DNA of 64,000 nucleotides. It comes from an uncultured Alphaproteobacteria bacterium. GTDB lineage: Bacteria; Pseudomonadota; Alphaproteobacteria; HIMB59; GCA-002718135. The position numbers and the translations under genes are program-made. Each line of letters opens with the position of its first letter. Positions within the stretch are counted from its first letter, which is position 1. The stretch is from NCBI GenBank assembly GCA_902600225.1, contig CACKIH010000005.1, positions 5,327 to 69,326 on the forward strand, given 5' to 3'. Under the pieces are notes generated by a model. That model ran no database searches. It worked only from the letters and a program-made list of their open reading frames with translations, and was not told the DNA's origin. Below, in pieces: positions 37,242 to 48,411 of the stretch.

Positions 37242-37805
37242 ATGAAATTATATCTTATTAGACATGCAGAGTCAGAAGCTAATGCAGCATCAGATTTAGA
37301 TAACCCAACTTATTATTATGATGCAAGAATTACTCAAAGAGGAGTTGAGCAAGCAAAAAAATTAAATAATAGAATTAAAAATCTCAAATTTGATAATTAT
37401 TTTTGTTCCCCCTTAACAAGAACATTGGAAACATTCTCTATTGTTTTTCCATCTAATAAACCTGTAATTGAACCTTTAATAAGAGAACATTTGTACCACT
37501 CATGTGATGTAGGAAGACAGCCAAAAAAATTAAAAAAAGAATTTAATGATTTTGATTTTAATAATTTAAATGATTTTTGGTGGAATAATAACAAACCTAT
37601 TAATGAAAAAAAAATTATACAAGAGTCTCACAATGATATTAAAATGAGATTAAGGTATTTTCTGCTATCTATCAAAAACCTTAATTTACAAAAAATTGTA
37701 TTAGTCAGTCATGGTACATTCTTAAGTCAAATAACTGAATATATGTTGGATAACTGTGAGATATACGATTGTGAGTACAATGAGGTATACGAAAAATTTT
37801 TTTAA
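37242..37805 (+). CDS. histidine phosphatase (phosphoglycerate mutase-like) family protein
   Basis: 187 aa with an N-terminal LIRHAESEAN catalytic motif and a distal SHG. Confidence 0.75.
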   Translation: MKLYLIRHAESEANAASDLDNPTYYYDARITQRGVEQAKKLNNRIKNLKFDNYFCSPLTRTLETFSIVFPSNKPVIEPLIREHLYHSCDVGRQPKKLKKEFNDFDFNNLNDFWWNNNKPINEKKIIQESHNDIKMRLRYFLLSIKNLNLQKIVLVSHGTFLSQITEYMLDNCEIYDCEYNEVYEKFF

Positions 37806-37828: not shown

Positions 37829-38596
37829 CTAAAACATCTCATTTATTATCTTATCTAATTTTTGTGTAACTCTATCAATTATTTTTTTTCCTATCTGTGC
37901 ATTGGATTTTCTAGGGTCTCCAATAATTCCACTTTTACTTAATTCTTTAGTTACCCAAGCTTTCTTAATATTTTTTTCATAAGAAATGGTTTTAGATGAT
38001 AAATAATCGGGAGATAATCTATGTTTAGAAATTTTAGATTGCCTAACTAGGTTTGGAAATAAATATAACATAATAGATGTTTCAAATTCTCCACCGTGAT
38101 AACCAAAATCTTTTTCTTTATTTGATATAATTTCTTTAAATTGATCAAATAAAAAATATGTGCCTTTTACTATGTTTACCTTAAATTCTGATTTCAATTC
38201 TTTAGCAATAATATCTATATGGCTAATTTGTCCACCATGACTATTTAAAAGTAATATATTTTTAAATTTCAATTTACATACATTTTCTAATATTGACAAA
38301 GAGTGCGATATAAATTCCAATGAATCAATACTTATTGTTCCATCAAAATCTGTATGTTCAGCAGCTGAACCAAAATATATCTCAGGCATAATTAAATATT
38401 TATTTGAATTATATTTTTTATTGAATTCTAATAATATTCCTTCAAGAATTTTTTTATCAGTATTTAATGGAAGATGCGGACCGTGTTGTTCTATTGATGA
38501 AAATGGGAAAATTAAAACTGTTTTTCTATTTATTTTTTTAATTTCATTTGTTGTTAATTCTTCCCAAAAGTTTGTTAGCATTTTTTTATTATACAT
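37829..38596 (-). CDS. creatininase-fold metal-dependent amidohydrolase
   Basis: 255 aa. The EQHGPHLPLNTD, NSHGG and HGGEFETS ligand motifs of the creatininase/ArfB/MftE fold are all present. Confidence 0.8.
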   Translation of the reverse strand: MYNKKMLTNFWEELTTNEIKKINRKTVLIFPFSSIEQHGPHLPLNTDKKILEGILLEFNKKYNSNKYLIMPEIYFGSAAEHTDFDGTISIDSLEFISHSLSILENVCKLKFKNILLLNSHGGQISHIDIIAKELKSEFKVNIVKGTYFLFDQFKEIISNKEKDFGYHGGEFETSIMLYLFPNLVRQSKISKHRLSPDYLSSKTISYEKNIKKAWVTKELSKSGIIGDPRKSNAQIGKKIIDRVTQKLDKIINEMF

Positions 38597-38609
38597 TTAT
38601 AAGTAAATT

Positions 38610-39569
38610 ATGAAATCTTATTCTTTATGGATTGATAAAAAAAAACAAGCTAAAATTTATCAAAAAAAACTTGTTTACAATAAAAATAACAAAACAGTTT
38701 TAGTTAAAACTATTTACTCAGGTATTAGCAAGGGAACTGAAAAATTAGTTTCATCTAAAAGCGTAAGTAAGGATCAATTTGAATTAATGAAAGCCCCTTT
38801 TCAAGAGGGTTCTTTTAATTTACCTATAAAATACGGTTATATAAATGTTGGGAATATTATCGATGGTCCAAGGAAATATATAAATAAAAAAATATTTAGT
38901 CTTTATCCTCATCAAGATTTATATGAAATTTCTATTCAAAATTTAATTTTTTTACCAAAAGGAAATTTGAGAAAATATGTTCTAACTGCAAATATGGAAA
39001 CAGCAATTAATATCTTTTGGGACGCTCAATCTAAAAGTAATAACAAAATTCTAATTGTAGGACTTGGCTCTGTAGGATTATTAACTGCATTTTTTTTTAA
39101 AATTAATGGATATAAAAATGTTTATGTTTTTGATAATAATAAAAATAAAAGAAAAATTGCCAACTATTTAGGATTAAATTTTATTGATATAAGAAAGATT
39201 GAGAAAATAGATGTAGCAATAAACACTACAGCTAATTATAAAGTTTTAAATTCTTTAATGGAAAAATTATCTATCGAAGGAAAAATAGTAGAAGCTAGTT
39301 GGTATGGTAAAAATAAAGGAGAAGTTGCCTTAGGTGGGTATTTTCATTCTAAAAGATTAAAAATTATTAGCTCACAGGTATCTAAAATACCAAAATACAT
39401 GAAAAATAAATATAATTTTGAGGGGAGATTAAAATTAGCAATTAAATCTTTAAAAAATTCAAAATTAGAAAAATTAATTACTAGTGAAAGTAATTTTTTT
39501 GATTTAGAAAAAGATTACTATAAAATCCTTCAAAATAAGGATACAATAATGCATCTAGTTAAATATTAA
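38610..39569 (+). CDS. MDR-superfamily dehydrogenase, BchC-like (no catalytic Zn-Cys motif)
   Basis: 319 aa. It has GISKGTEKLV where Zn-ADHs have GICGSD/H. Rossmann motif IVGLGSVGLL. Confidence 0.65.
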   Translation: MKSYSLWIDKKKQAKIYQKKLVYNKNNKTVLVKTIYSGISKGTEKLVSSKSVSKDQFELMKAPFQEGSFNLPIKYGYINVGNIIDGPRKYINKKIFSLYPHQDLYEISIQNLIFLPKGNLRKYVLTANMETAINIFWDAQSKSNNKILIVGLGSVGLLTAFFFKINGYKNVYVFDNNKNKRKIANYLGLNFIDIRKIEKIDVAINTTANYKVLNSLMEKLSIEGKIVEASWYGKNKGEVALGGYFHSKRLKIISSQVSKIPKYMKNKYNFEGRLKLAIKSLKNSKLEKLITSESNFFDLEKDYYKILQNKDTIMHLVKY

Positions 39570-39571
39570 TT

Positions 39572-39970
39572 ATGTATTCGATAAAAGTAAGAGAAAATAT
39601 TCTAATAGCTCATTCTTTACCTGGAGAAGTATTTGGACCAGCCCAAAATATGCATGGAGCTACATATTTAGTAGATGCAGAATTTTTTACTGATAAACTT
39701 AATAAATACAATATAATTATGGATTTAGGAATAGTGTCCACGACTTTAAAAGATATTCTTAAAATATATAATTATCAAAATTTAGATGAAATTGATGAAT
39801 TTAAGGGAAAAATTACCTCAACAGAGTTTTTAGCAGAGGATATTTGCAATAAGATCTTGAATAGACTAAGAAATGAATTCTCTGAAGATTACAAATCTTT
39901 AAAAAAAATTAAAATAACCTTGCAAGAATCAAATGTTGCATGGGCATCATATGAAAAAGAGGTTATCTAA
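39572..39970 (+). CDS. 6-pyruvoyl-tetrahydropterin synthase/QueD-fold protein, divergent active site
   Basis: 132 aa. IAHSL...MHGATYLVD...MDLG...YQNLDE...TSTEFLAEDI follows the PTPS pattern. HGH is replaced by HGA, and no Cys precedes it. Confidence 0.7.
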   Translation: MYSIKVRENILIAHSLPGEVFGPAQNMHGATYLVDAEFFTDKLNKYNIIMDLGIVSTTLKDILKIYNYQNLDEIDEFKGKITSTEFLAEDICNKILNRLRNEFSEDYKSLKKIKITLQESNVAWASYEKEVI

Positions 39971-40997
39971 AAATAAATCTGATATTTATTTTGTCTATCC
40001 AGGAAATATTAATGCAAAAACTGGAGGATATATTTATGAAAAAAATATCCTAGAATATGCAAAGATTAGAGATATAAATATTAGACCAATTGCTCTAAGT
40101 GAAAATTATCCTTTTCCTACAAATAACGATATAAAATATTTTCTTAACATTTTAGATAAAATTGATCCTCACTCTAAAATTATTATAGATGGATTAGCTT
40201 TAGAAGGAATGTATTCTATTTTTAAAAAAATACTTACTTATAATGTTATCGCGCTAATACATCATCCTTTATATCTTGAATTTAAAGGTCAAAGGTCAAA
40301 AAAATTCTTACGATTAGAAAAAGAAAATTTCAAAAAAATAAATAAATTTATTGTGACTTCTAAAAATACAAAAAATTTATTAATAAATGAATTTAAGGTA
40401 CTAAATAATAAAATTTCTGTAGTTGAACCTGGAATAGAAAGACTAGCAAATTATAGTTTTAAAAATAATAGTAAAATTCATCTTTTAACATGTGGAAGTA
40501 TAATAAATAGAAAAAATTATCTTTTTTTATTAAAAGTTTTAAAGCCTTTAGATAATTTTATTTTAGAAATTGTTGGTGATACTACAAGAGATATAGGTTA
40601 TTACAAAAAACTCAAAAATTTTATTTCTAAAAATTCAATGAACAGAAAAATAATATTCCATGGTACTATTTCAGATACAAAATTAGCTAAATTATATTCT
40701 AAAACAGATTGTTACATTTCGGTAAGTAAATATGAAGGTTTTGGGATGTCTTTAGCAAATGCATTAATAATTAAAAAGCCAATTATAACCTTTTTTACTA
40801 ATACTATCTTAAATACACTGGGAAAAAAGGGTGTTATTTATTTCAAAAAATTTGAAGTTAATGATCTTAGAAATATAATTATTAAAAATATATTAAATAA
40901 AAAAAATTTTAAAAAACTAAATATTGATATTTATAAAAACAAAAGATATCTTCTTACTCCTCTAGAATCAGCTAAGAAATTTGTTAATTTAATTTAA
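39951..40997 (+). CDS. GT4-family (group 1) glycosyltransferase
   Basis: About 348 aa with the C-terminal EGFGMSLANAL (E-x7-E region). The start is ATG 39951 or 39933, and both overlap the preceding gene. Confidence 0.75.
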   Translation: MKKRLSKNKSDIYFVYPGNINAKTGGYIYEKNILEYAKIRDINIRPIALSENYPFPTNNDIKYFLNILDKIDPHSKIIIDGLALEGMYSIFKKILTYNVIALIHHPLYLEFKGQRSKKFLRLEKENFKKINKFIVTSKNTKNLLINEFKVLNNKISVVEPGIERLANYSFKNNSKIHLLTCGSIINRKNYLFLLKVLKPLDNFILEIVGDTTRDIGYYKKLKNFISKNSMNRKIIFHGTISDTKLAKLYSKTDCYISVSKYEGFGMSLANALIIKKPIITFFTNTILNTLGKKGVIYFKKFEVNDLRNIIIKNILNKKNFKKLNIDIYKNKRYLLTPLESAKKFVNLI

Positions 40998-40998
40998 T

Positions 40999-41787
40999 AT
41001 GCATGAATTTCAAAATAAATGGTTAAATCTCAGAGAAACTGTCGATAGAAATTCACGAAACCAAAGAATACTATATTTAATTAATAAATTTTTTAAAATT
41101 AAAAAAAATATTAGAATAGTTGACTTAGGTTCAGGCGCTGGATCTAATTATAGATTTCTTAAGTCACGATTATTAAATAATCAATATTGGTCTTTTGTAG
41201 ACATTTCACATCAATCAACAAATTATTTTAAAAAAAATATAAAACTATCATCTAAAATAAAAAAAATTAATTTTAAAATTTTTGATGTAATTAATAATCT
41301 AGAAAAAATAAATTTTAATGATTATAATTTAGTTACAGGATCTGCTTTTTTAGATATTCTTCCAAAAACATGGTTTAAGTATTTTCATAAATTAAATGTT
41401 GATACTGAAATTGTCTACTTTGCCTTAAATTATAACGGTAATTTTAAATTTTTTCCAAAACACAAGGATGATAAAAGAATTCTTAATATTTTTAATAAAG
41501 ATCAAAAATCTGACAAAGGAATAGGGGAAGTGGCCGTTGGACCAGATTGCACTGAATTAATAAATAAAGTATTTAAAAGAACTCACAAAACATATGTTTT
41601 AGATTCTACGTGGGATGTTAGTACAAATTATAAATTTCAAATTTATTTTTTAAATTTTTGTAGAGAAATTATTCAAAAAAATCAACTTAACTTTGATGAT
41701 TGGTTAAAATTTCGTTTAAAAAGTATTAAAGAAAAAAATTCTAGATTCATTTTAAATAATACAGATTTTTTAGCTATTAAGAAATAA
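40999..41787 (+). CDS. class I SAM-dependent methyltransferase
   Basis: 262 aa with motif I, RIVDLGSGAGSN. Starts 1 nt after the GT stop. Confidence 0.7.
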   Translation: MHEFQNKWLNLRETVDRNSRNQRILYLINKFFKIKKNIRIVDLGSGAGSNYRFLKSRLLNNQYWSFVDISHQSTNYFKKNIKLSSKIKKINFKIFDVINNLEKINFNDYNLVTGSAFLDILPKTWFKYFHKLNVDTEIVYFALNYNGNFKFFPKHKDDKRILNIFNKDQKSDKGIGEVAVGPDCTELINKVFKRTHKTYVLDSTWDVSTNYKFQIYFLNFCREIIQKNQLNFDDWLKFRLKSIKEKNSRFILNNTDFLAIKK

Positions 41788-42603
41788 ATTAACAATAATT
41801 TCATTATCTAATTCATTAAAATTATGTTTTGGTCTGATAACTTTATTGAGATTTGAAATTTCTTTTAAATTTAATGAATTAATTCCGGAACCTATTAATA
41901 TTGGGGCAATCATAAATTGAAGAATATCAATATATTTATTATTTATTAATTCTGAAATAGTTTTTGATCCTCCCTCTACTAAAATATTTTTATATTTAAG
42001 TTTTTTTATTTGCGTAATTAAGTTTTTAGTAAAATTTTTTTCTTTTAATCTAATTATTGTTGAATTATTCAATCTAATATTTTTATTACTTTTTGTAAAA
42101 ATTATATTTTCATTACCGTCATTAAATATTTTATATTTGTTATTTAGTGAAAGACTGCCATCGATAATAATTCTTTTTGGATTTGTGCCCTTTATTTTTC
42201 TTGTAGTTAATAGGGGATCGTCTTTTTTAATGGTATTTGAACCTACAATAATCGCATCACTGATACTTCGTAAGCAATGAAGATAAATAATACTCTTGGG
42301 ATTATTTATGTAATGTGAATTACCATTATTTAATGCAATTCTACCATCAATACTTTGTCCTATCTGAGCTATAACTAATTTTTTATTTTTTCTTAGTATT
42401 GGGACAAGGATATTTAAAATTGATTGGTAAAATTTATTTATATTAATTTTAGATTCCAGATTATTATTTTTTAAGTAAAAGTTACTTTTTCTTTTTGAAG
42501 ATAAAGAAATACTATTGTTTTTAACCAATAAATATAAATCACTATTCTTTTTAGAATTTTTTATAAAATCTAGTAAAATTCCTATATTTTTTGATGTAAT
42601 CAT
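41770..42603 (-). CDS. RibD C-terminal-domain (pyrimidine reductase-like) protein without deaminase domain
   Basis: 277 aa. IAQIGQSIDGRIA, DAIIVGSNTIKKDDPLLT, KRIIID and VEGGSKT are present. An unrelated N-extension of about 70 aa replaces the CMP/dCMP-type deaminase domain. Confidence 0.75.
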   Translation of the reverse strand: MITSKNIGILLDFIKNSKKNSDLYLLVKNNSISLSSKRKSNFYLKNNNLESKININKFYQSILNILVPILRKNKKLVIAQIGQSIDGRIALNNGNSHYINNPKSIIYLHCLRSISDAIIVGSNTIKKDDPLLTTRKIKGTNPKRIIIDGSLSLNNKYKIFNDGNENIIFTKSNKNIRLNNSTIIRLKEKNFTKNLITQIKKLKYKNILVEGGSKTISELINNKYIDILQFMIAPILIGSGINSLNLKEISNLNKVIRPKHNFNELDNEIIVNLFLNS

Positions 42604-42639
42604 TTGTTTTTATTTCAATTATATCTATATAAAGTTTTC

Positions 42640-43761
42640 ATGAGTTTCAAATCTAATACAGGAACTATAATAGATAGAGCAATTAACGAACTTAGGACCG
42701 GAAGACCCTTAATAATTCAGAATAACAAGGAATATTGGATGTTCTTTAATATAGAGCATTCCCAAAGTAAAATTTTTAATCAATTCAATAAGCACTTAAT
42801 TGATGAAAAATATCTACTTATTACTAAACAAAAAGCTCAATCAATTTTTAATAAGAATATTAAAAGTAATATTTATTTTGAGATAAATCCCAAAACAGAT
42901 GTAAATCAAATAATAAATTTATTTGTTAATCCTCTTAGCAATAATAAAGTAATTAAATTTACCAATATTAAAAAATTCAAATCTAAAAATTTTCATAATG
43001 TTTGTATTGATCTTTCCAAAAATGCTAAAATGATACCATCGCTAGTTTTTAAAAAAATTAATAAAAAATATTACAAAAATATAAATGAATTTGGATTTAA
43101 GAATGGAATTTTAATATTCGATTACAAAGATTTATTGAAGCAAAATGAATTAATCTGTGAAAGTATTAAATTAGTTTCTAGTGCAAAAGTTCCACTACCA
43201 AAAAACGAAAATTCTAATTTTAAAATATTCAAATCATATATTGGATCTGATAAGCATGTAGCGATAATTGTTAATCCAAAAAAAATAAATAAAAAATCTG
43301 TTAATTTAAGAATACATTCAGCTTGTTTTACAGGTGATATTTTTCATTCTTTAAAATGTGATTGTGGTGAACAATTAAATCAATCAATCAATTACATGGT
43401 TAGAAATAATGGTGGAATTATATTATATTTAGAACAAGAAGGTAGGGGAATAGGATTAGCTAATAAAATGAGAGCTTATTCTCTTCAAGCAAGAGGTATG
43501 GATACAATAGACGCCGATCATAATATTGGTTTTTTAGATGATGAAAGAGATTTTAATATTGCAGCTAGAATACTGAAATTATTAAAAATAAATAAAGTTA
43601 ATCTTATTACAAATAATAAAAATAAAATTAATTCTATTAAGAAAGCTGGAATTAAAGTCGAAAATCAAATAAATACAAAGCCAACCTTGAATAAATTTAA
43701 TAAAAATTATTTTAGAACAAGAGTAAAAAAAGCTGGGTACGGTCTTAAACTAGTAGTATAA
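42640..43761 (+). CDS. ribA: GTP cyclohydrolase II with degenerate RibB-like N-terminal domain
   Basis: The C-terminal half has RIHSACFTGDIFHSLKCDCG (Zn cysteines), LEQEGRGIGLANKMRAYSLQ and DERDF. The N-terminal ~215 aa lack the DHBP-synthase acidic loop and His motifs. ATG 42640 is preferred over the TTG at 42604. Confidence 0.85.
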   Translation: MSFKSNTGTIIDRAINELRTGRPLIIQNNKEYWMFFNIEHSQSKIFNQFNKHLIDEKYLLITKQKAQSIFNKNIKSNIYFEINPKTDVNQIINLFVNPLSNNKVIKFTNIKKFKSKNFHNVCIDLSKNAKMIPSLVFKKINKKYYKNINEFGFKNGILIFDYKDLLKQNELICESIKLVSSAKVPLPKNENSNFKIFKSYIGSDKHVAIIVNPKKINKKSVNLRIHSACFTGDIFHSLKCDCGEQLNQSINYMVRNNGGIILYLEQEGRGIGLANKMRAYSLQARGMDTIDADHNIGFLDDERDFNIAARILKLLKINKVNLITNNKNKINSIKKAGIKVENQINTKPTLNKFNKNYFRTRVKKAGYGLKLVV

Positions 43762-43763
43762 TT

Positions 43764-44207
43764 ATGAAAAAAATTCCTAAGATAAAACTCCAATTAACAA
43801 ACGATAATGAGTTTGATTCATCTAAATTAAAGAATAAAATAGTTTTATTCTTTTACCCTAAGGCGTTAACTGGTGGATGCTCAGTAGAAGTTGCGGATTT
43901 TCAGAAATATTTAACAAAATTTAATAAAATTGGCTTTGATGTAATAGGAGCTTCTAAAGATCCTGTTGATCGGAATAAAAAATTTTCAGATAAGTATAAA
44001 TTGAAATATCCTCTTGGTTCGGATGAAGGAAAAAATTGTGATAAACTTGGTATTTGGATAGAAAAATCTATGTATGGTAGGAAATATTTTGGGATAGATA
44101 GATCTACATTTGTGATCGATAAAAATGGAAAAATTCTAAATTCTTGGAATAAAGTTAAAGTTAAAGGTCATGTTGAAGAAGTTTATAATTTTTGTAAGGA
44201 TCAGTAA
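43764..44207 (+). CDS. bcp: peroxiredoxin, Bcp type
   Basis: 147 aa with FFYPKALTGGCSVE (T-x-x-C peroxidatic site). Starts 2 nt after the GCH II stop. Confidence 0.8.
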   Translation: MKKIPKIKLQLTNDNEFDSSKLKNKIVLFFYPKALTGGCSVEVADFQKYLTKFNKIGFDVIGASKDPVDRNKKFSDKYKLKYPLGSDEGKNCDKLGIWIEKSMYGRKYFGIDRSTFVIDKNGKILNSWNKVKVKGHVEEVYNFCKDQ

Positions 44208-46810: not shown

Positions 46811-47689
46811 ATGAAAAAAAGTATAATTTATTCTTCAATTTTTTTATTTTTTGCCGGAATTTTTTTTGTGACAAATGATGCAATAATAAACTACCTAGCA
46901 CAAACAGATGTAAAATTTTATCATTTCATCTTTTATGGAATACCCATATTTTTATGCTTCCCTTTATATTTATTAATTAACGGAACTTTAAAAAAAAATA
47001 TAAAATGTACTAATTATCTTCCACCTATTTTCAGAGGTTTTTTAAATATTCCTTTGCCTTTTATTGCATTTATAACTCTCGAACAAATTAAACTTCCAGA
47101 ATTCACAACACTGAATATGACTGCGCCATTAATGGGAACAATATTTGCTATTTTTTTACTAAATGAAAAATTAAATATTTTGACTTATCTTTCTTTATTT
47201 ATTGGTTTCTTAGGAGTTTTGTTTGTTATTCAGCCAGGTTTTGAAAGTTTTAATATCTATTATTTAATTGTCCTTATTGGAGTTTTTTTAATTACCGTAA
47301 CAACTTTTATAGTAAATAAATATAGTCATGTAACAACAAATATTGGTTATTTTTTGTATGGTGGTTTTTTTGTTCATTTAATTTCAATACCTTTATTTTT
47401 AATGAATCCATTAAAAGTGACTTTTTTTGATTTTTTTTTAATTTTAACTGCTGCATTATTTATTAACTCAGCTATGTTTTTTGCAACAACTGCATTTAAA
47501 ATTGCACAAAAACATTATGCATCAGTATTTAGCTTAGTTTACTTGCAGGTATTGTGGTCATCATTAGTTGGAATATTTATATTTAATGAATATATGAATT
47601 TATATGCTTATATTGGAGCAATATTTATTGTTTTAAGTGGAATAGTTTCATTACCTTCACAAATTAAACAATTAAAAGAAGCTGAATAA
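46811..47689 (+). CDS. EamA/DMT-family transporter
   Basis: ATG 46811 (MKKSIIYSS...). About 292 aa with 10 TM segments. Confidence 0.75.
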   Translation: MKKSIIYSSIFLFFAGIFFVTNDAIINYLAQTDVKFYHFIFYGIPIFLCFPLYLLINGTLKKNIKCTNYLPPIFRGFLNIPLPFIAFITLEQIKLPEFTTLNMTAPLMGTIFAIFLLNEKLNILTYLSLFIGFLGVLFVIQPGFESFNIYYLIVLIGVFLITVTTFIVNKYSHVTTNIGYFLYGGFFVHLISIPLFLMNPLKVTFFDFFLILTAALFINSAMFFATTAFKIAQKHYASVFSLVYLQVLWSSLVGIFIFNEYMNLYAYIGAIFIVLSGIVSLPSQIKQLKEAE

Positions 47690-48411
47690 TGATCAAAATT
47701 TTATTATTTTTATTTATTTGTATTTTTAGTTACAAATCTTTTTCTACTGAAGTTCAAATCGTAAACGAAATTATAGGAAATGGTTTAGAGGTAAAAAATC
47801 ACTCAAAAGTATCTGTTCATTACATTGGTAAATTAGAAGATAATACTGTTTTTGATAGTTCCTATGATAGAGGACAATTGTTTGATTTTCAAATAGGTGT
47901 AAGACAAGTAATCTTAGGTTGGGAAACTGGTTTACTTGGAATGAAAGAAGGAGGCAAAAGAACAATTTTTATTCCGTATGAGTTAGCATATGGAGAAAGT
48001 GGCGCAGGCAATTTGATTCCACCAAAATCAAATCTTATTTTTGAAATTGAAGTCATAAAAGTAATTCCTCCAGGATATAAAGAAATAGATGGTTATCAAC
48101 TTAAATTAGCAATGACTGGCGATTTTAAAATTATAGATATTAGAACTAATGATGAAATCATTAATTCAAATAAAATACCTGGTGCTATTCAAATAACTGC
48201 ATTTGACAAAAATGGAAATTTTTTCCCAAATTTTTTTGATAAGTATAAAGAGAATGTAGAAATTGGAGAAAAAGTTATCTTTGTAAGCCAGAACGGAGAT
48301 ATATCATCAATTTTAGCTAATGGATTTGTTGAGCAACTAAAGCAGAATAATATATATCATTTAAAAGATGGTATTTCTGGTCTTAAAAATATAAATTTTG
48401 ATTTTGAATAA
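47689..48411 (+). CDS. exported FKBP-type peptidyl-prolyl isomerase fused to a Cys-less rhodanese-like domain
   Basis: Signal peptide, then an FKBP core (VHYIGKL...FDSSYDRG...GWETGLLGMKEGGKR...LIFEIEVIKV). The C-terminal rhodanese-like fold has VIFVSQNGDIS where an active rhodanese has C-x-x-G-x-R. Confidence 0.8.
   Translation: MIKILLFLFICIFSYKSFSTEVQIVNEIIGNGLEVKNHSKVSVHYIGKLEDNTVFDSSYDRGQLFDFQIGVRQVILGWETGLLGMKEGGKRTIFIPYELAYGESGAGNLIPPKSNLIFEIEVIKVIPPGYKEIDGYQLKLAMTGDFKIIDIRTNDEIINSNKIPGAIQITAFDKNGNFFPNFFDKYKENVEIGEKVIFVSQNGDISSILANGFVEQLKQNNIYHLKDGISGLKNINFDFE

Follow-up and report, generated by a model that had tools for sequence, protein, structure and literature searches.

A conserved seven-gene cluster around a PTPS-IV protein in SAR11 bacteria and its putative GTP-derived product

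Organization and conservation of the locus

The stretch of DNA analysed here, which we refer to as the window, comprises 64 kb of contig CACKIH010000005.1 from an uncultured alphaproteobacterium. Its G+C content is about 27%, and the nearest relatives of its proteins, with 97–99% protein identity, are found in single-cell genomes of the Pelagibacteraceae; the label SAR11 is used below both for the Pelagibacteraceae loci and for the window. Seven genes at positions 37829–43761 form a conserved unit. They encode a creatininase-fold amidohydrolase, a dehydrogenase of the medium-chain dehydrogenase/reductase (MDR) superfamily, a T-fold protein of the PTPS-IV subfamily, a glycosyltransferase, a methyltransferase, a reductase-only homologue of RibD (RibD_C) and a GTP cyclohydrolase II (GCH II). 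On balance, we lean towards the interpretation that these genes are the SAR11 version of a widespread orphan biosynthetic cluster centred on PTPS-IV, with a putative glycosylated and methylated aminopyrimidine or pterin as its product.

The window proteins were compared by tblastn with 80 SAR11 loci. From the creatininase gene through the GCH II gene, both order and orientation are kept even where the SAR11 proteins are only 50–70% identical and the flanks are different, and the creatininase gene is syntenic in all 80 loci. Peptide patterns of the SAR11-type dehydrogenase match 551 species-level genomes. The gene set is real and goes beyond chance, as its order survives this degree of divergence and the change of flanks, and as its core recurs across phyla.

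The creatininase gene lies on the reverse strand (37829–38596; Pfam Creatininase, 188.5 bits) and is separated by a divergent gap of 13 nt from a forward-strand run of four genes. The first of these encodes the BchC-like MDR-superfamily dehydrogenase (38610–39569) and is followed, after 2 nt, by the gene for the PTPS-IV T-fold protein (COG0720; 39572–39970; Pfam PTPS, 74.5 bits). The gene for the GT4-family (GT-B) glycosyltransferase (39933–40997; Glycos_transf_1, 65.3 bits; Glyco_trans_1_4, 49.7 bits) overlaps that of the T-fold protein by 38 nt, which a start at the second ATG (39951) would reduce to 20 nt, and the gene for the class I S-adenosylmethionine-dependent methyltransferase-like protein (40999–41787) begins after a gap of 1 nt. 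The latter has an 18-nt convergent overlap with the RibD_C gene on the reverse strand (41770–42603; RibD_C, 108.8 bits), which is head-to-head with the forward-strand GCH II gene (GTP_cyclohydro2, 164.9 bits); this ends at 43761 and starts at a TTG at 42604 or, more likely, at an ATG at 42640. Two further forward-strand genes adjoin the cluster: a histidine phosphatase (branch 1) gene at 37242–37805 (His_Phos_1, 79.5 bits) and a Bcp/PrxQ-type peroxiredoxin gene at 43764–44207 (AhpC-TSA, 93.3 bits), 2 nt after GCH II.

The open reading frames reproduce the coordinates and spacings that an earlier note on this DNA had given for these nine genes, and the motifs quoted there (EQHGPHLPLNTD, NSHGG, HGGEFETS, GISKGTEKLV, EGFGMSLANAL and VDLGSGAGSN) were all found in the translations. 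Its family assignments stand with confidence for Creatininase, PTPS, Glycos_transf_1, RibD_C and GTP_cyclohydro2, as judged by hidden Markov model searches, but those of the dehydrogenase and the methyltransferase score below the Pfam cutoffs. None of the seven cluster proteins matches an NCBIfam equivalog at its cutoff, the sole passing NCBIfam model being NF001591, a RibA subfamily model, on GCH II. No match to a membrane-protein family was found among the seven SAR11 proteins in Pfam or NCBIfam. A scan for promoters and terminators returned 60 sites against 68 expected and is uninformative in such AT-rich DNA.

The histidine phosphatase gene adjoins the cluster in 55 of the 80 SAR11 loci and Bcp is kept in 47, the closer ones only. 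Both are missing, along with the HpcH/thiokinase genes found upstream in this lineage, from nine divergent SAR11 loci (L055–L079), and no histidine phosphatase was seen in the clusters of the other phyla examined. Because the phosphatase, Bcp and the upstream flanks differ in the divergent loci, we take the unit to be the seven genes; the earlier suggestion that the phosphatase and the peroxiredoxin take part in the pathway is not upheld, and we regard both as local neighbours only. In one divergent locus, L056, the flanks are instead a glutamine synthetase gene, a glutathione S-transferase gene upstream of the cluster, a CMD-family gene in the place of Bcp and a major facilitator superfamily transporter gene.

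A peroxide-related gene of differing family stands near the cluster in three contexts. These are the window (Bcp, 43764–44207), L056 (CMD/AhpD on the opposite strand, L056:13562–13969) and Agrobacterium, where an OsmC-family gene lies about 3 kb from the cluster (L081:16225–16656). Such neighbours may be a coincidence or a hint of a redox-sensitive product. The upstream genes of the window (34036–37033) consist of an HpcH/HpaI gene of the malyl-CoA/citryl-CoA lyase-like type followed by an ATP-grasp/CoA-ligase pair of the succinyl-CoA synthetase/malate thiokinase type. A methanopterin (H4MPT) cluster was considered on account of these malyl-CoA lyase-like and thiokinase-like genes and was rejected, as the flanks are not conserved and none of the seven families matches the known H4MPT genes. 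Elsewhere in the window, a secreted-looking protein (47689–48411) joins an FKBP-type peptidyl-prolyl isomerase domain to a rhodanese-like domain, and a tRNA gene (59394–59466) is the only Rfam match in the 64 kb, which contain no FMN or other riboswitch according to the same search.

Related clusters in other phyla

The T-fold protein carries an FGPAQ motif (EVFGPAQNMHGATY in the window protein) that does not vary among Agrobacterium, Methylosinus, Streptomyces and SAR11. This motif is a typical signature of PTPS-IV, the neighbourhood of which is described as holding PF00925 (GTP_cyclohydro2) and PF01872 (RibD_C) (PMC5445326); the subfamily within COG0720 is attributed to Phillips et al. (2012), as cited in PMC5041015 and PMC5445326. 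The window has the same neighbourhood, with the GCH II and RibD_C genes no more than 2.7 kb away. The sole relative in the PDB is 3D7J, the 'uncharacterized protein SCO6650' of Streptomyces coelicolor (E = 7.9e-34). The view that the gene set is undescribed must accordingly be abandoned, since PTPS-IV has been named, its GCH II/RibD_C neighbourhood has been published (PMC5445326, PMC5041015) and SCO6650 has a crystal structure. The cluster is a further member of a type that has been recognised but not solved, and not a categorically new system; in the literature searched, no paper describes the whole seven-gene set or its product.

Homologues of the dehydrogenase were sought among plasmids by tblastn and were found, at 22–41% identity, in Agrobacterium, Rhizobium, Methylosinus, Rhodobacteraceae, Thiodictyon, Streptomyces, Arthrobacter and haloarchaea. 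Those of Agrobacterium, Methylosinus, Streptomyces and Haloarcula (25–41% identity) lie in the same gene block. In Agrobacterium pAt, ribA, the run of MDR, '6-carboxytetrahydropterin synthase', GT4 and methyltransferase genes, and a RibD-family gene stand together, and the Methylosinus context is like it but without ribA. The Streptomyces fungicidicus context has a CDP-alcohol phosphatidyltransferase gene, the MDR–PTPS–GT4–methyltransferase run and, further on, creatininase and ribA genes. Haloarcula marismortui pNG700 carries creatininase, CDP-alcohol phosphatidyltransferase, sulfatase-like and MDR genes, a frameshifted PTPS-like frame, GT4 and a methyltransferase. This unannotated frame (L084:9961–10398) has a T-fold-like start and then becomes low-complexity and Ser/Thr/Pro-rich; probably either the gene is a pseudogene that has suffered a frameshift or the record contains a sequencing error. 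The earlier suggestion of similar gene sets in other Alphaproteobacteria is thus borne out in Agrobacterium pAt and Methylosinus, and the sets extend far beyond that class.

A DNA pattern for FGPAQxxHGAT, scanned over one genome per species, gave at least 120 matches; those listed come from Actinomycetota, Alpha-, Beta- and Gammaproteobacteria, Nostoc, Bacteroidota, Myxococcota and Acidobacteriota. The gene content of 80 loci of at most 8 kb, taken from the matches listed and covering at least seven phyla, was analysed. A GT4 gene directly follows PTPS-IV in 71 of the 80, and MDR (70), methyltransferase (53), GCH II (30), RibD_C (29) and creatininase (15) genes were counted in the same set; as each locus is an arbitrary frame of 8 kb, all gene counts from this set are minimum values. 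With the dehydrogenase as query, a representative search returned 129 clusters (50% identity) at E <= 1e-30. One of them contains a natural RibD_C–MDR fusion protein (P0215), which ties the reductase to the dehydrogenase. The proposal that GCH II and a reductase-only RibD are joined in a co-conserved unit with a PTPS-fold protein, a dehydrogenase, a glycosyltransferase and a methyltransferase is therefore supported both by the synteny within SAR11 and by the cross-phylum loci.

The same 80 loci bear on the possibility that the product is a lipid or envelope head group, in which a GTP-derived glycosylated unit would be attached by a CDP-alcohol transferase and translocated by LPG_synthase_TM, SAR11 keeping the soluble half or unlinked membrane genes. 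CDP-alcohol phosphatidyltransferase (CDP-OH_P_transf) genes occur in 38 of the loci, LPG_synthase_TM in 25 and sulfatase-like genes in 11, all three families being confirmed by Pfam, and the same membrane genes are seen in Agrobacterium, Streptomyces and Haloarcula. However, none of the three families has a homologue in the 64-kb SAR11 window and, as noted above, no SAR11 cluster protein matches a membrane-protein family. These genes are also missing from several 8-kb loci of Alphaproteobacteria, Nostoc and Bacteroidota and thus appear to be accessory. We consider a head group improbable as the general product of the cluster.

Assignment of the cluster proteins

Comparison of the T-fold protein with Escherichia coli QueD indicates that His16, His31 and Glu110 are kept, whereas His33 is an alanine in five of five PTPS-IV sequences. 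The position of the QueD Cys27 is also an alanine, and the motif reads FGPAQNMHGA, with neither the catalytic cysteine nor the glutamate of ExxHGH. With the three-histidine zinc site incomplete and the catalytic Cys/Glu motif missing, a canonical PTPS/QueD enzyme (PTPS-I, II or III) was rejected. The glutamate aligned to Glu110 is the residue that we take to anchor the 2-amino-4-oxo ring of a pterin. Spoonamore and Bandarian are said to have found in 2008 that SCO6650 binds no zinc and is without PTPS activity.

In the reductase, RibD_C matches residues 77–242, and there is an N-terminal extension of about 70 residues. Pfam finds no zinc deaminase domain, and the protein was thus rejected as a bifunctional RibD. 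Its best PDB relatives are the true RibD/ArfC-type reductases 2HXV (2e-17) and 2AZN (4e-14) and not DHFR-like proteins. An alignment of ten canonical RibD proteins with 26 cluster homologues shows that Asp158, Arg184, Thr196, Asp200, Arg207, Glu299 and Gly301 (E. coli numbering) are retained by the window protein and by every cluster homologue. Lys152, in contrast, is present in all ten canonical proteins and in none of the 26, where it is replaced by glutamine (14), histidine (six), serine (five) or arginine (one); the window protein has Gln80 at this position. HMMER alignments place a lysine here in the bacterial RibD proteins 2HXV and 9NO2 and an asparagine in the archaeal 2AZN and 6P8C. 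Lys152 lies beside the pyrimidine and presumably has a role in the choice of substrate. Its loss, together with the archaeal asparagine, supports reduction before or without deamination, and the reductase is predicted from these residue patterns to take the non-deaminated 2,5-diamino substrate. In having a polar uncharged residue at this position, the SAR11 protein resembles the archaeal reductases that act on 2,5-diamino-6-ribosylamino-4(3H)-pyrimidinone 5'-phosphate (DAROPP). Without deamination the 2-amino-4-oxo ring would be preserved, which is the type of ring that T-fold proteins bind.

The likeness to the archaeal reductases, which act before deamination, also suits a route in the archaeal order to 5-amino-6-ribitylaminouracil for flavin or F420/Fo, with PTPS-IV as the missing deaminase or in some other step. 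Consistent with this, PTPS-IV has been linked to F420 synthesis on the basis of unpublished data (PMC5041015), the cluster encodes no deaminase domain, and genes for PPOX/F420-type oxidoreductases lie near the cluster in Streptomyces and Haloarcula. Such a route leaves the linked GT4, methyltransferase and MDR genes unexplained, however, and SAR11 already has a canonical bifunctional RibD. PTPS-IV has neither a metal site nor a known deaminase motif. SAR11 is not known to make F420, which counts further against this explanation, and the probability we assign to it is slight.

The creatininase-fold protein has its metal-ligand motifs intact by eye but scores below the NCBIfam cutoffs for MftE (105 against 172), creatininase (81 against 235) and ArfB (30.6 against 180). 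A creatininase-family gene is also found in the clusters of Streptomyces, Amycolatopsis, Halomonas, Defluviicoccus and Haloarcula, with the SAR11 protein matching the Streptomyces type at about 80 bits and that of Defluviicoccus at 157 bits. The Rhizobium plasmid creatininases most similar to it stand in catabolic contexts and give no functional clue. BrbF, a member of the same family, was shown in 2022 to deformylate the formyl intermediate, and Sinorhizobium meliloti and Brucella cannot synthesise riboflavin without it (PMC9478397). We propose the SAR11 protein as a candidate ArfB/BrbF-like formamidase for 2-amino-5-formylamino-6-ribosylaminopyrimidinone 5'-phosphate, or for the hydrolysis of some other amide.

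This proposal draws on the pairing of creatininase genes with particular forms of GCH II. All Streptomyces-type cluster GCH II proteins with a readable motif have a methionine at the position of the E. coli RibA Tyr105, and a creatininase gene adjoins each. Other clusters in the loci shown have tyrosine or histidine at this position and no creatininase gene, with the exception of L150. In the work of Spoonamore and Bandarian (2008), SCO6655, in which methionine replaces the active-site tyrosine, reportedly stops at the formylaminopyrimidine. In SAR11, L150 and Halomonas the creatininase gene is instead paired with a GCH II that reads HSAC where E. coli RibA has HSEC, and the tyrosine is confirmed in SAR11 and L150.

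Within the window GCH II, GTP_cyclohydro2 covers residues 193–356, and residues 1–190 give no DHBP_synthase hit in Pfam. The N-terminus appears to be a degenerate DHBP-synthase-like region of the PRK08815 architecture, and a bifunctional RibBA was rejected in the absence of a functional DHBP synthase domain. The protein passes NF001591 (217.5, cutoff 148) but not TIGR00505 (185, cutoff 205.85) or PRK08815 (266, cutoff 464), which marks it as divergent. The equivalents of the zinc cysteines (Cys54, Cys65 and Cys67), Arg128, Tyr105 and EGRGIGL of E. coli RibA are all present, with the change of HSEC to HSAC (window 43159–43200). We note that the glutamate of HSEC is likewise replaced, by alanine, serine or arginine, in N-extended GCH II proteins of Alphaproteobacteria and Halomonas (L081, L109, L144, L149, L150 and L152). 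This change could alter the product, for example by retention of the formyl group, and these proteins could be candidates for the 'missing GCH III' postulated for the Rhizobiales in the BrbF study (PMC9478397).

The ordinary riboflavin genes of SAR11 lie elsewhere. A RibD deaminase-motif pattern was found in at least eight Pelagibacteraceae loci, and in L240 the gene order is glyA–nrdR–ribD–ribE–ribBA, with ribD encoding both dCMP_cyt_deam_1 and RibD_C, so that riboflavin synthase is located in this separate locus. The presence of a ribD–ribE–ribBA operon confirms that SAR11 has separate riboflavin genes, as the earlier note had wondered, and its statement that the cluster is not a normal rib operon also holds, Pfam finding no deaminase, DHBP_synthase, lumazine synthase or riboflavin synthase among the cluster proteins. 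The DHBP synthase half of the operon ribBA is intact (262 bits, with a RENEGD motif), but in five of five loci its C-terminal domain is without the zinc cysteines, EGRGIGL and Tyr105, and its TIGR00505 score of 34.8 bits is far below the cutoff of 205.85. It is therefore unlikely that the cluster GCH II is a spare copy. As the cyclohydrolase domain of the operon ribBA is degenerate, the cluster enzyme probably feeds riboflavin synthesis as well, and the cell probably has no other active GCH II; a scan for a second GCH II returned one SAR11 locus, the cluster itself. SAR11 appears to have split RibA and RibB between two reciprocally degenerate ribBA-type genes (L240:6606–7706 and window 42604–43761). 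Neither gene would be described correctly if it were automatically annotated as 'bifunctional RibBA', which matters for the annotation of vitamin B2 synthesis in the ocean.

These results raise the question of whether the cluster merely reflects housekeeping, with GCH II, the formamidase and RibD_C serving riboflavin and the dehydrogenase, GT4 and methyltransferase being unrelated sugar or envelope genes of a streamlined genome. With the operon cyclohydrolase dead in five of five loci, the cluster GCH II would be needed for riboflavin, as BrbF is in the species named above. N-extended GCH II genes also stand alone in other Alphaproteobacteria (L351), and short intergenic spacers are found everywhere in SAR11. 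Against this, in many phyla whose genomes are not compact the MDR–PTPS–GT4–methyltransferase genes accompany GCH II and RibD_C, and they are often located on plasmids, the hosts of which presumably carry chromosomal rib genes. The RibD_C–MDR fusion is difficult to reconcile with unrelated neighbours, and the cluster reductase is of a distinct class without Lys152 in an organism that already has a full RibD. The cluster lacks lumazine and riboflavin synthases, and the window lacks an FMN riboswitch. The genes flanking GCH II and RibD_C are clearly co-conserved with them, contrary to what a chance association with the only riboflavin genes of the cell would give. In our view, housekeeping is a very unlikely explanation for the gene set as a whole.

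Proposed product and comparison with known systems

The dehydrogenase falls below the Pfam cutoffs for ADH_zinc_N (24.8 against 31.8) and Glu_dehyd_C. It scores 51 bits with TIGR01202 (BchC), far below the cutoff of 291, and the GISxGTE-type motif at its N-terminus is a resemblance only; a BchC equivalog was rejected. GISKGTE replaces the GxCxxD-type motif and the catalytic zinc cysteine is absent, and a zinc-dependent alcohol dehydrogenase was rejected. No PDB relative was found at E < 0.01, and the protein is best described from its homologues as a putative cluster-specific dehydrogenase family. The methyltransferase reaches 19.6 bits in Pfam against a cutoff of 27 and was recognized by eye from its glycine-rich VDLGSGAGSN motif; it is homologous to the gene at the same position in Agrobacterium (31% identity) and in Methylosinus. 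Sequence comparison with the PDB gave only generic matches or none for GT4 and the methyltransferase. GT4 could not be linked to the known pterin glycosyltransferases, since a sequence match to those with solved structures was not detected.

A modified GTP-derived heterocycle is the best reading of this gene set, and the following scheme would account for it. GCH II would open GTP to DAROPP, and the creatininase-fold hydrolase would remove any N5 formyl group left, as a back-up or partner, as suggested by its homology and by the pairing in Streptomyces of creatininase with the methionine variant. RibD_C would then reduce the ribosyl to a ribityl chain without prior deamination, as its residue patterns indicate, and the 2-amino-4-oxo ring would be kept. 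More speculatively, the dehydrogenase may re-oxidize a hydroxyl of the side chain, and the zinc-less T-fold protein may bind the 2-amino-4-oxopyrimidine and catalyse a rearrangement or ring closure. In one version, oxidation at C2' and closure onto the 5-amino group would give a pterin of the dihydroneopterin-phosphate type, and the reduce-then-oxidize pair, acting at C1'/C2', would imitate what GTP cyclohydrolase I achieves in its Amadori step. Addition of a sugar by GT4 and of a methyl group by the methyltransferase may follow, judging by the families to which they belong. The product would be soluble in SAR11; the extra membrane genes of other lineages suggest that in Actinomycetota and haloarchaea it may be further joined to a phospho-alcohol or lipid. 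The SAR11 GCH II would meanwhile also supply the ordinary riboflavin pathway.

Several points weigh against this interpretation. The product is predicted from genes alone, and the steps given to the dehydrogenase, the T-fold protein, GT4 and the methyltransferase depend on homology at the family level, with the dehydrogenase and methyltransferase assignments below Pfam cutoffs. An AlphaFold2 model of the dehydrogenase, made with SAR11 homologues only, is poor (pLDDT 52). The cluster creatininases are not one clade or orthologous group, and the distance between those of Actinomycetota and SAR11 indicates that the fold may have been recruited more than once. As the SAR11 GCH II has tyrosine and not methionine, a formamidase may not be needed here. 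The published remark on F420 (PMC5041015) would point to another role for PTPS-IV. Since the cluster GCH II is probably the sole active copy, riboflavin housekeeping could account for some of the gene adjacency. Lastly, the CDP-alcohol transferase, LPG_synthase_TM and sulfatase-like genes are common elsewhere and not present in the window, so that the end products may differ between lineages.

The scheme can be taken further, to a GTP-cyclohydrolase-I-independent route to a new glycosylated and methylated pterin or 2-amino-ribitylpyrimidine cofactor, in which RibD_C and the dehydrogenase would carry out a redox-neutral 'Amadori-like' isomerization and PTPS-IV would close the pyrazine ring. The compound would be a core metabolite of SAR11; in Actinomycetota and haloarchaea, a phosphodiester would link it to a lipid or alcohol. 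In this full form we offer the idea only tentatively and think it rather unlikely.

SAR11 bacteria are the most abundant marine bacteria. They are extremely streamlined yet keep the seven genes across divergent lineages, and the core of the set is also present in many phyla and in haloarchaea; this retention and spread argue for an important small molecule. It may be a lipid head group, or a new cofactor based on a pterin or pyrimidine. Its identity would assign functions to four widespread 'generic' gene families and would mean that marine dissolved organic matter contains a GTP-derived compound so far overlooked.

Among known systems, the closest is the SCO6650–SCO6655 region of S. coelicolor. 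It shares the PTPS-IV match, and Streptomyces loci have the MDR–PTPS–GT4–methyltransferase run with creatininase and GCH II in the same local order. They differ in adding CDP-alcohol phosphatidyltransferase and LPG_synthase_TM, and several of their 8-kb frames show no RibD_C. The SCO6655-type GCH II is short and has methionine at Tyr105, whereas that of SAR11 has tyrosine, HSAC and a degenerate N-terminal domain of about 190 residues. PMC5041015 and PMC5445326 give no reaction for PTPS-IV, and the full seven-gene context with MDR, GT4, methyltransferase and creatininase is not described there.

The early steps of the archaeal and fungal riboflavin routes (ArfA/ArfB/ArfC and Rib7), together with BrbF, offer a second comparison, as a creatininase-fold deformylase is followed by reduction of a non-deaminated diaminopyrimidine, and BrbF indicates that the same fold performs deformylation in Alphaproteobacteria. 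The ring is opened there by GCH III and here by GCH II, however, and the ArfB model is far from its cutoff. The cluster has MDR, T-fold, GT4 and methyltransferase genes in place of the deaminase, lumazine synthase and riboflavin synthase.

In the tox cluster, GCH II, a RibD-like enzyme and a methyltransferase make a non-flavin heterocycle, toxoflavin, and cyanobacteria glycosylate pterins with a GT-B enzyme, BGluT. There is no support for membership of the SAR11 cluster in either system, as it has no tox-specific genes and its GT4 has no match to a solved pterin glycosyltransferase. In Chlamydia, RibA and TrpF bypass FolE by converting the GCH II product to a pterin of the dihydroneopterin type (PMC4161248). 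Unlike the cluster, this bypass uses a TIM-barrel isomerase, serves folate and involves no glycosylation or methylation, but for the step proposed for the T-fold protein it provides a chemical precedent, the formation of a pterin from the GCH II product without GTP cyclohydrolase I.

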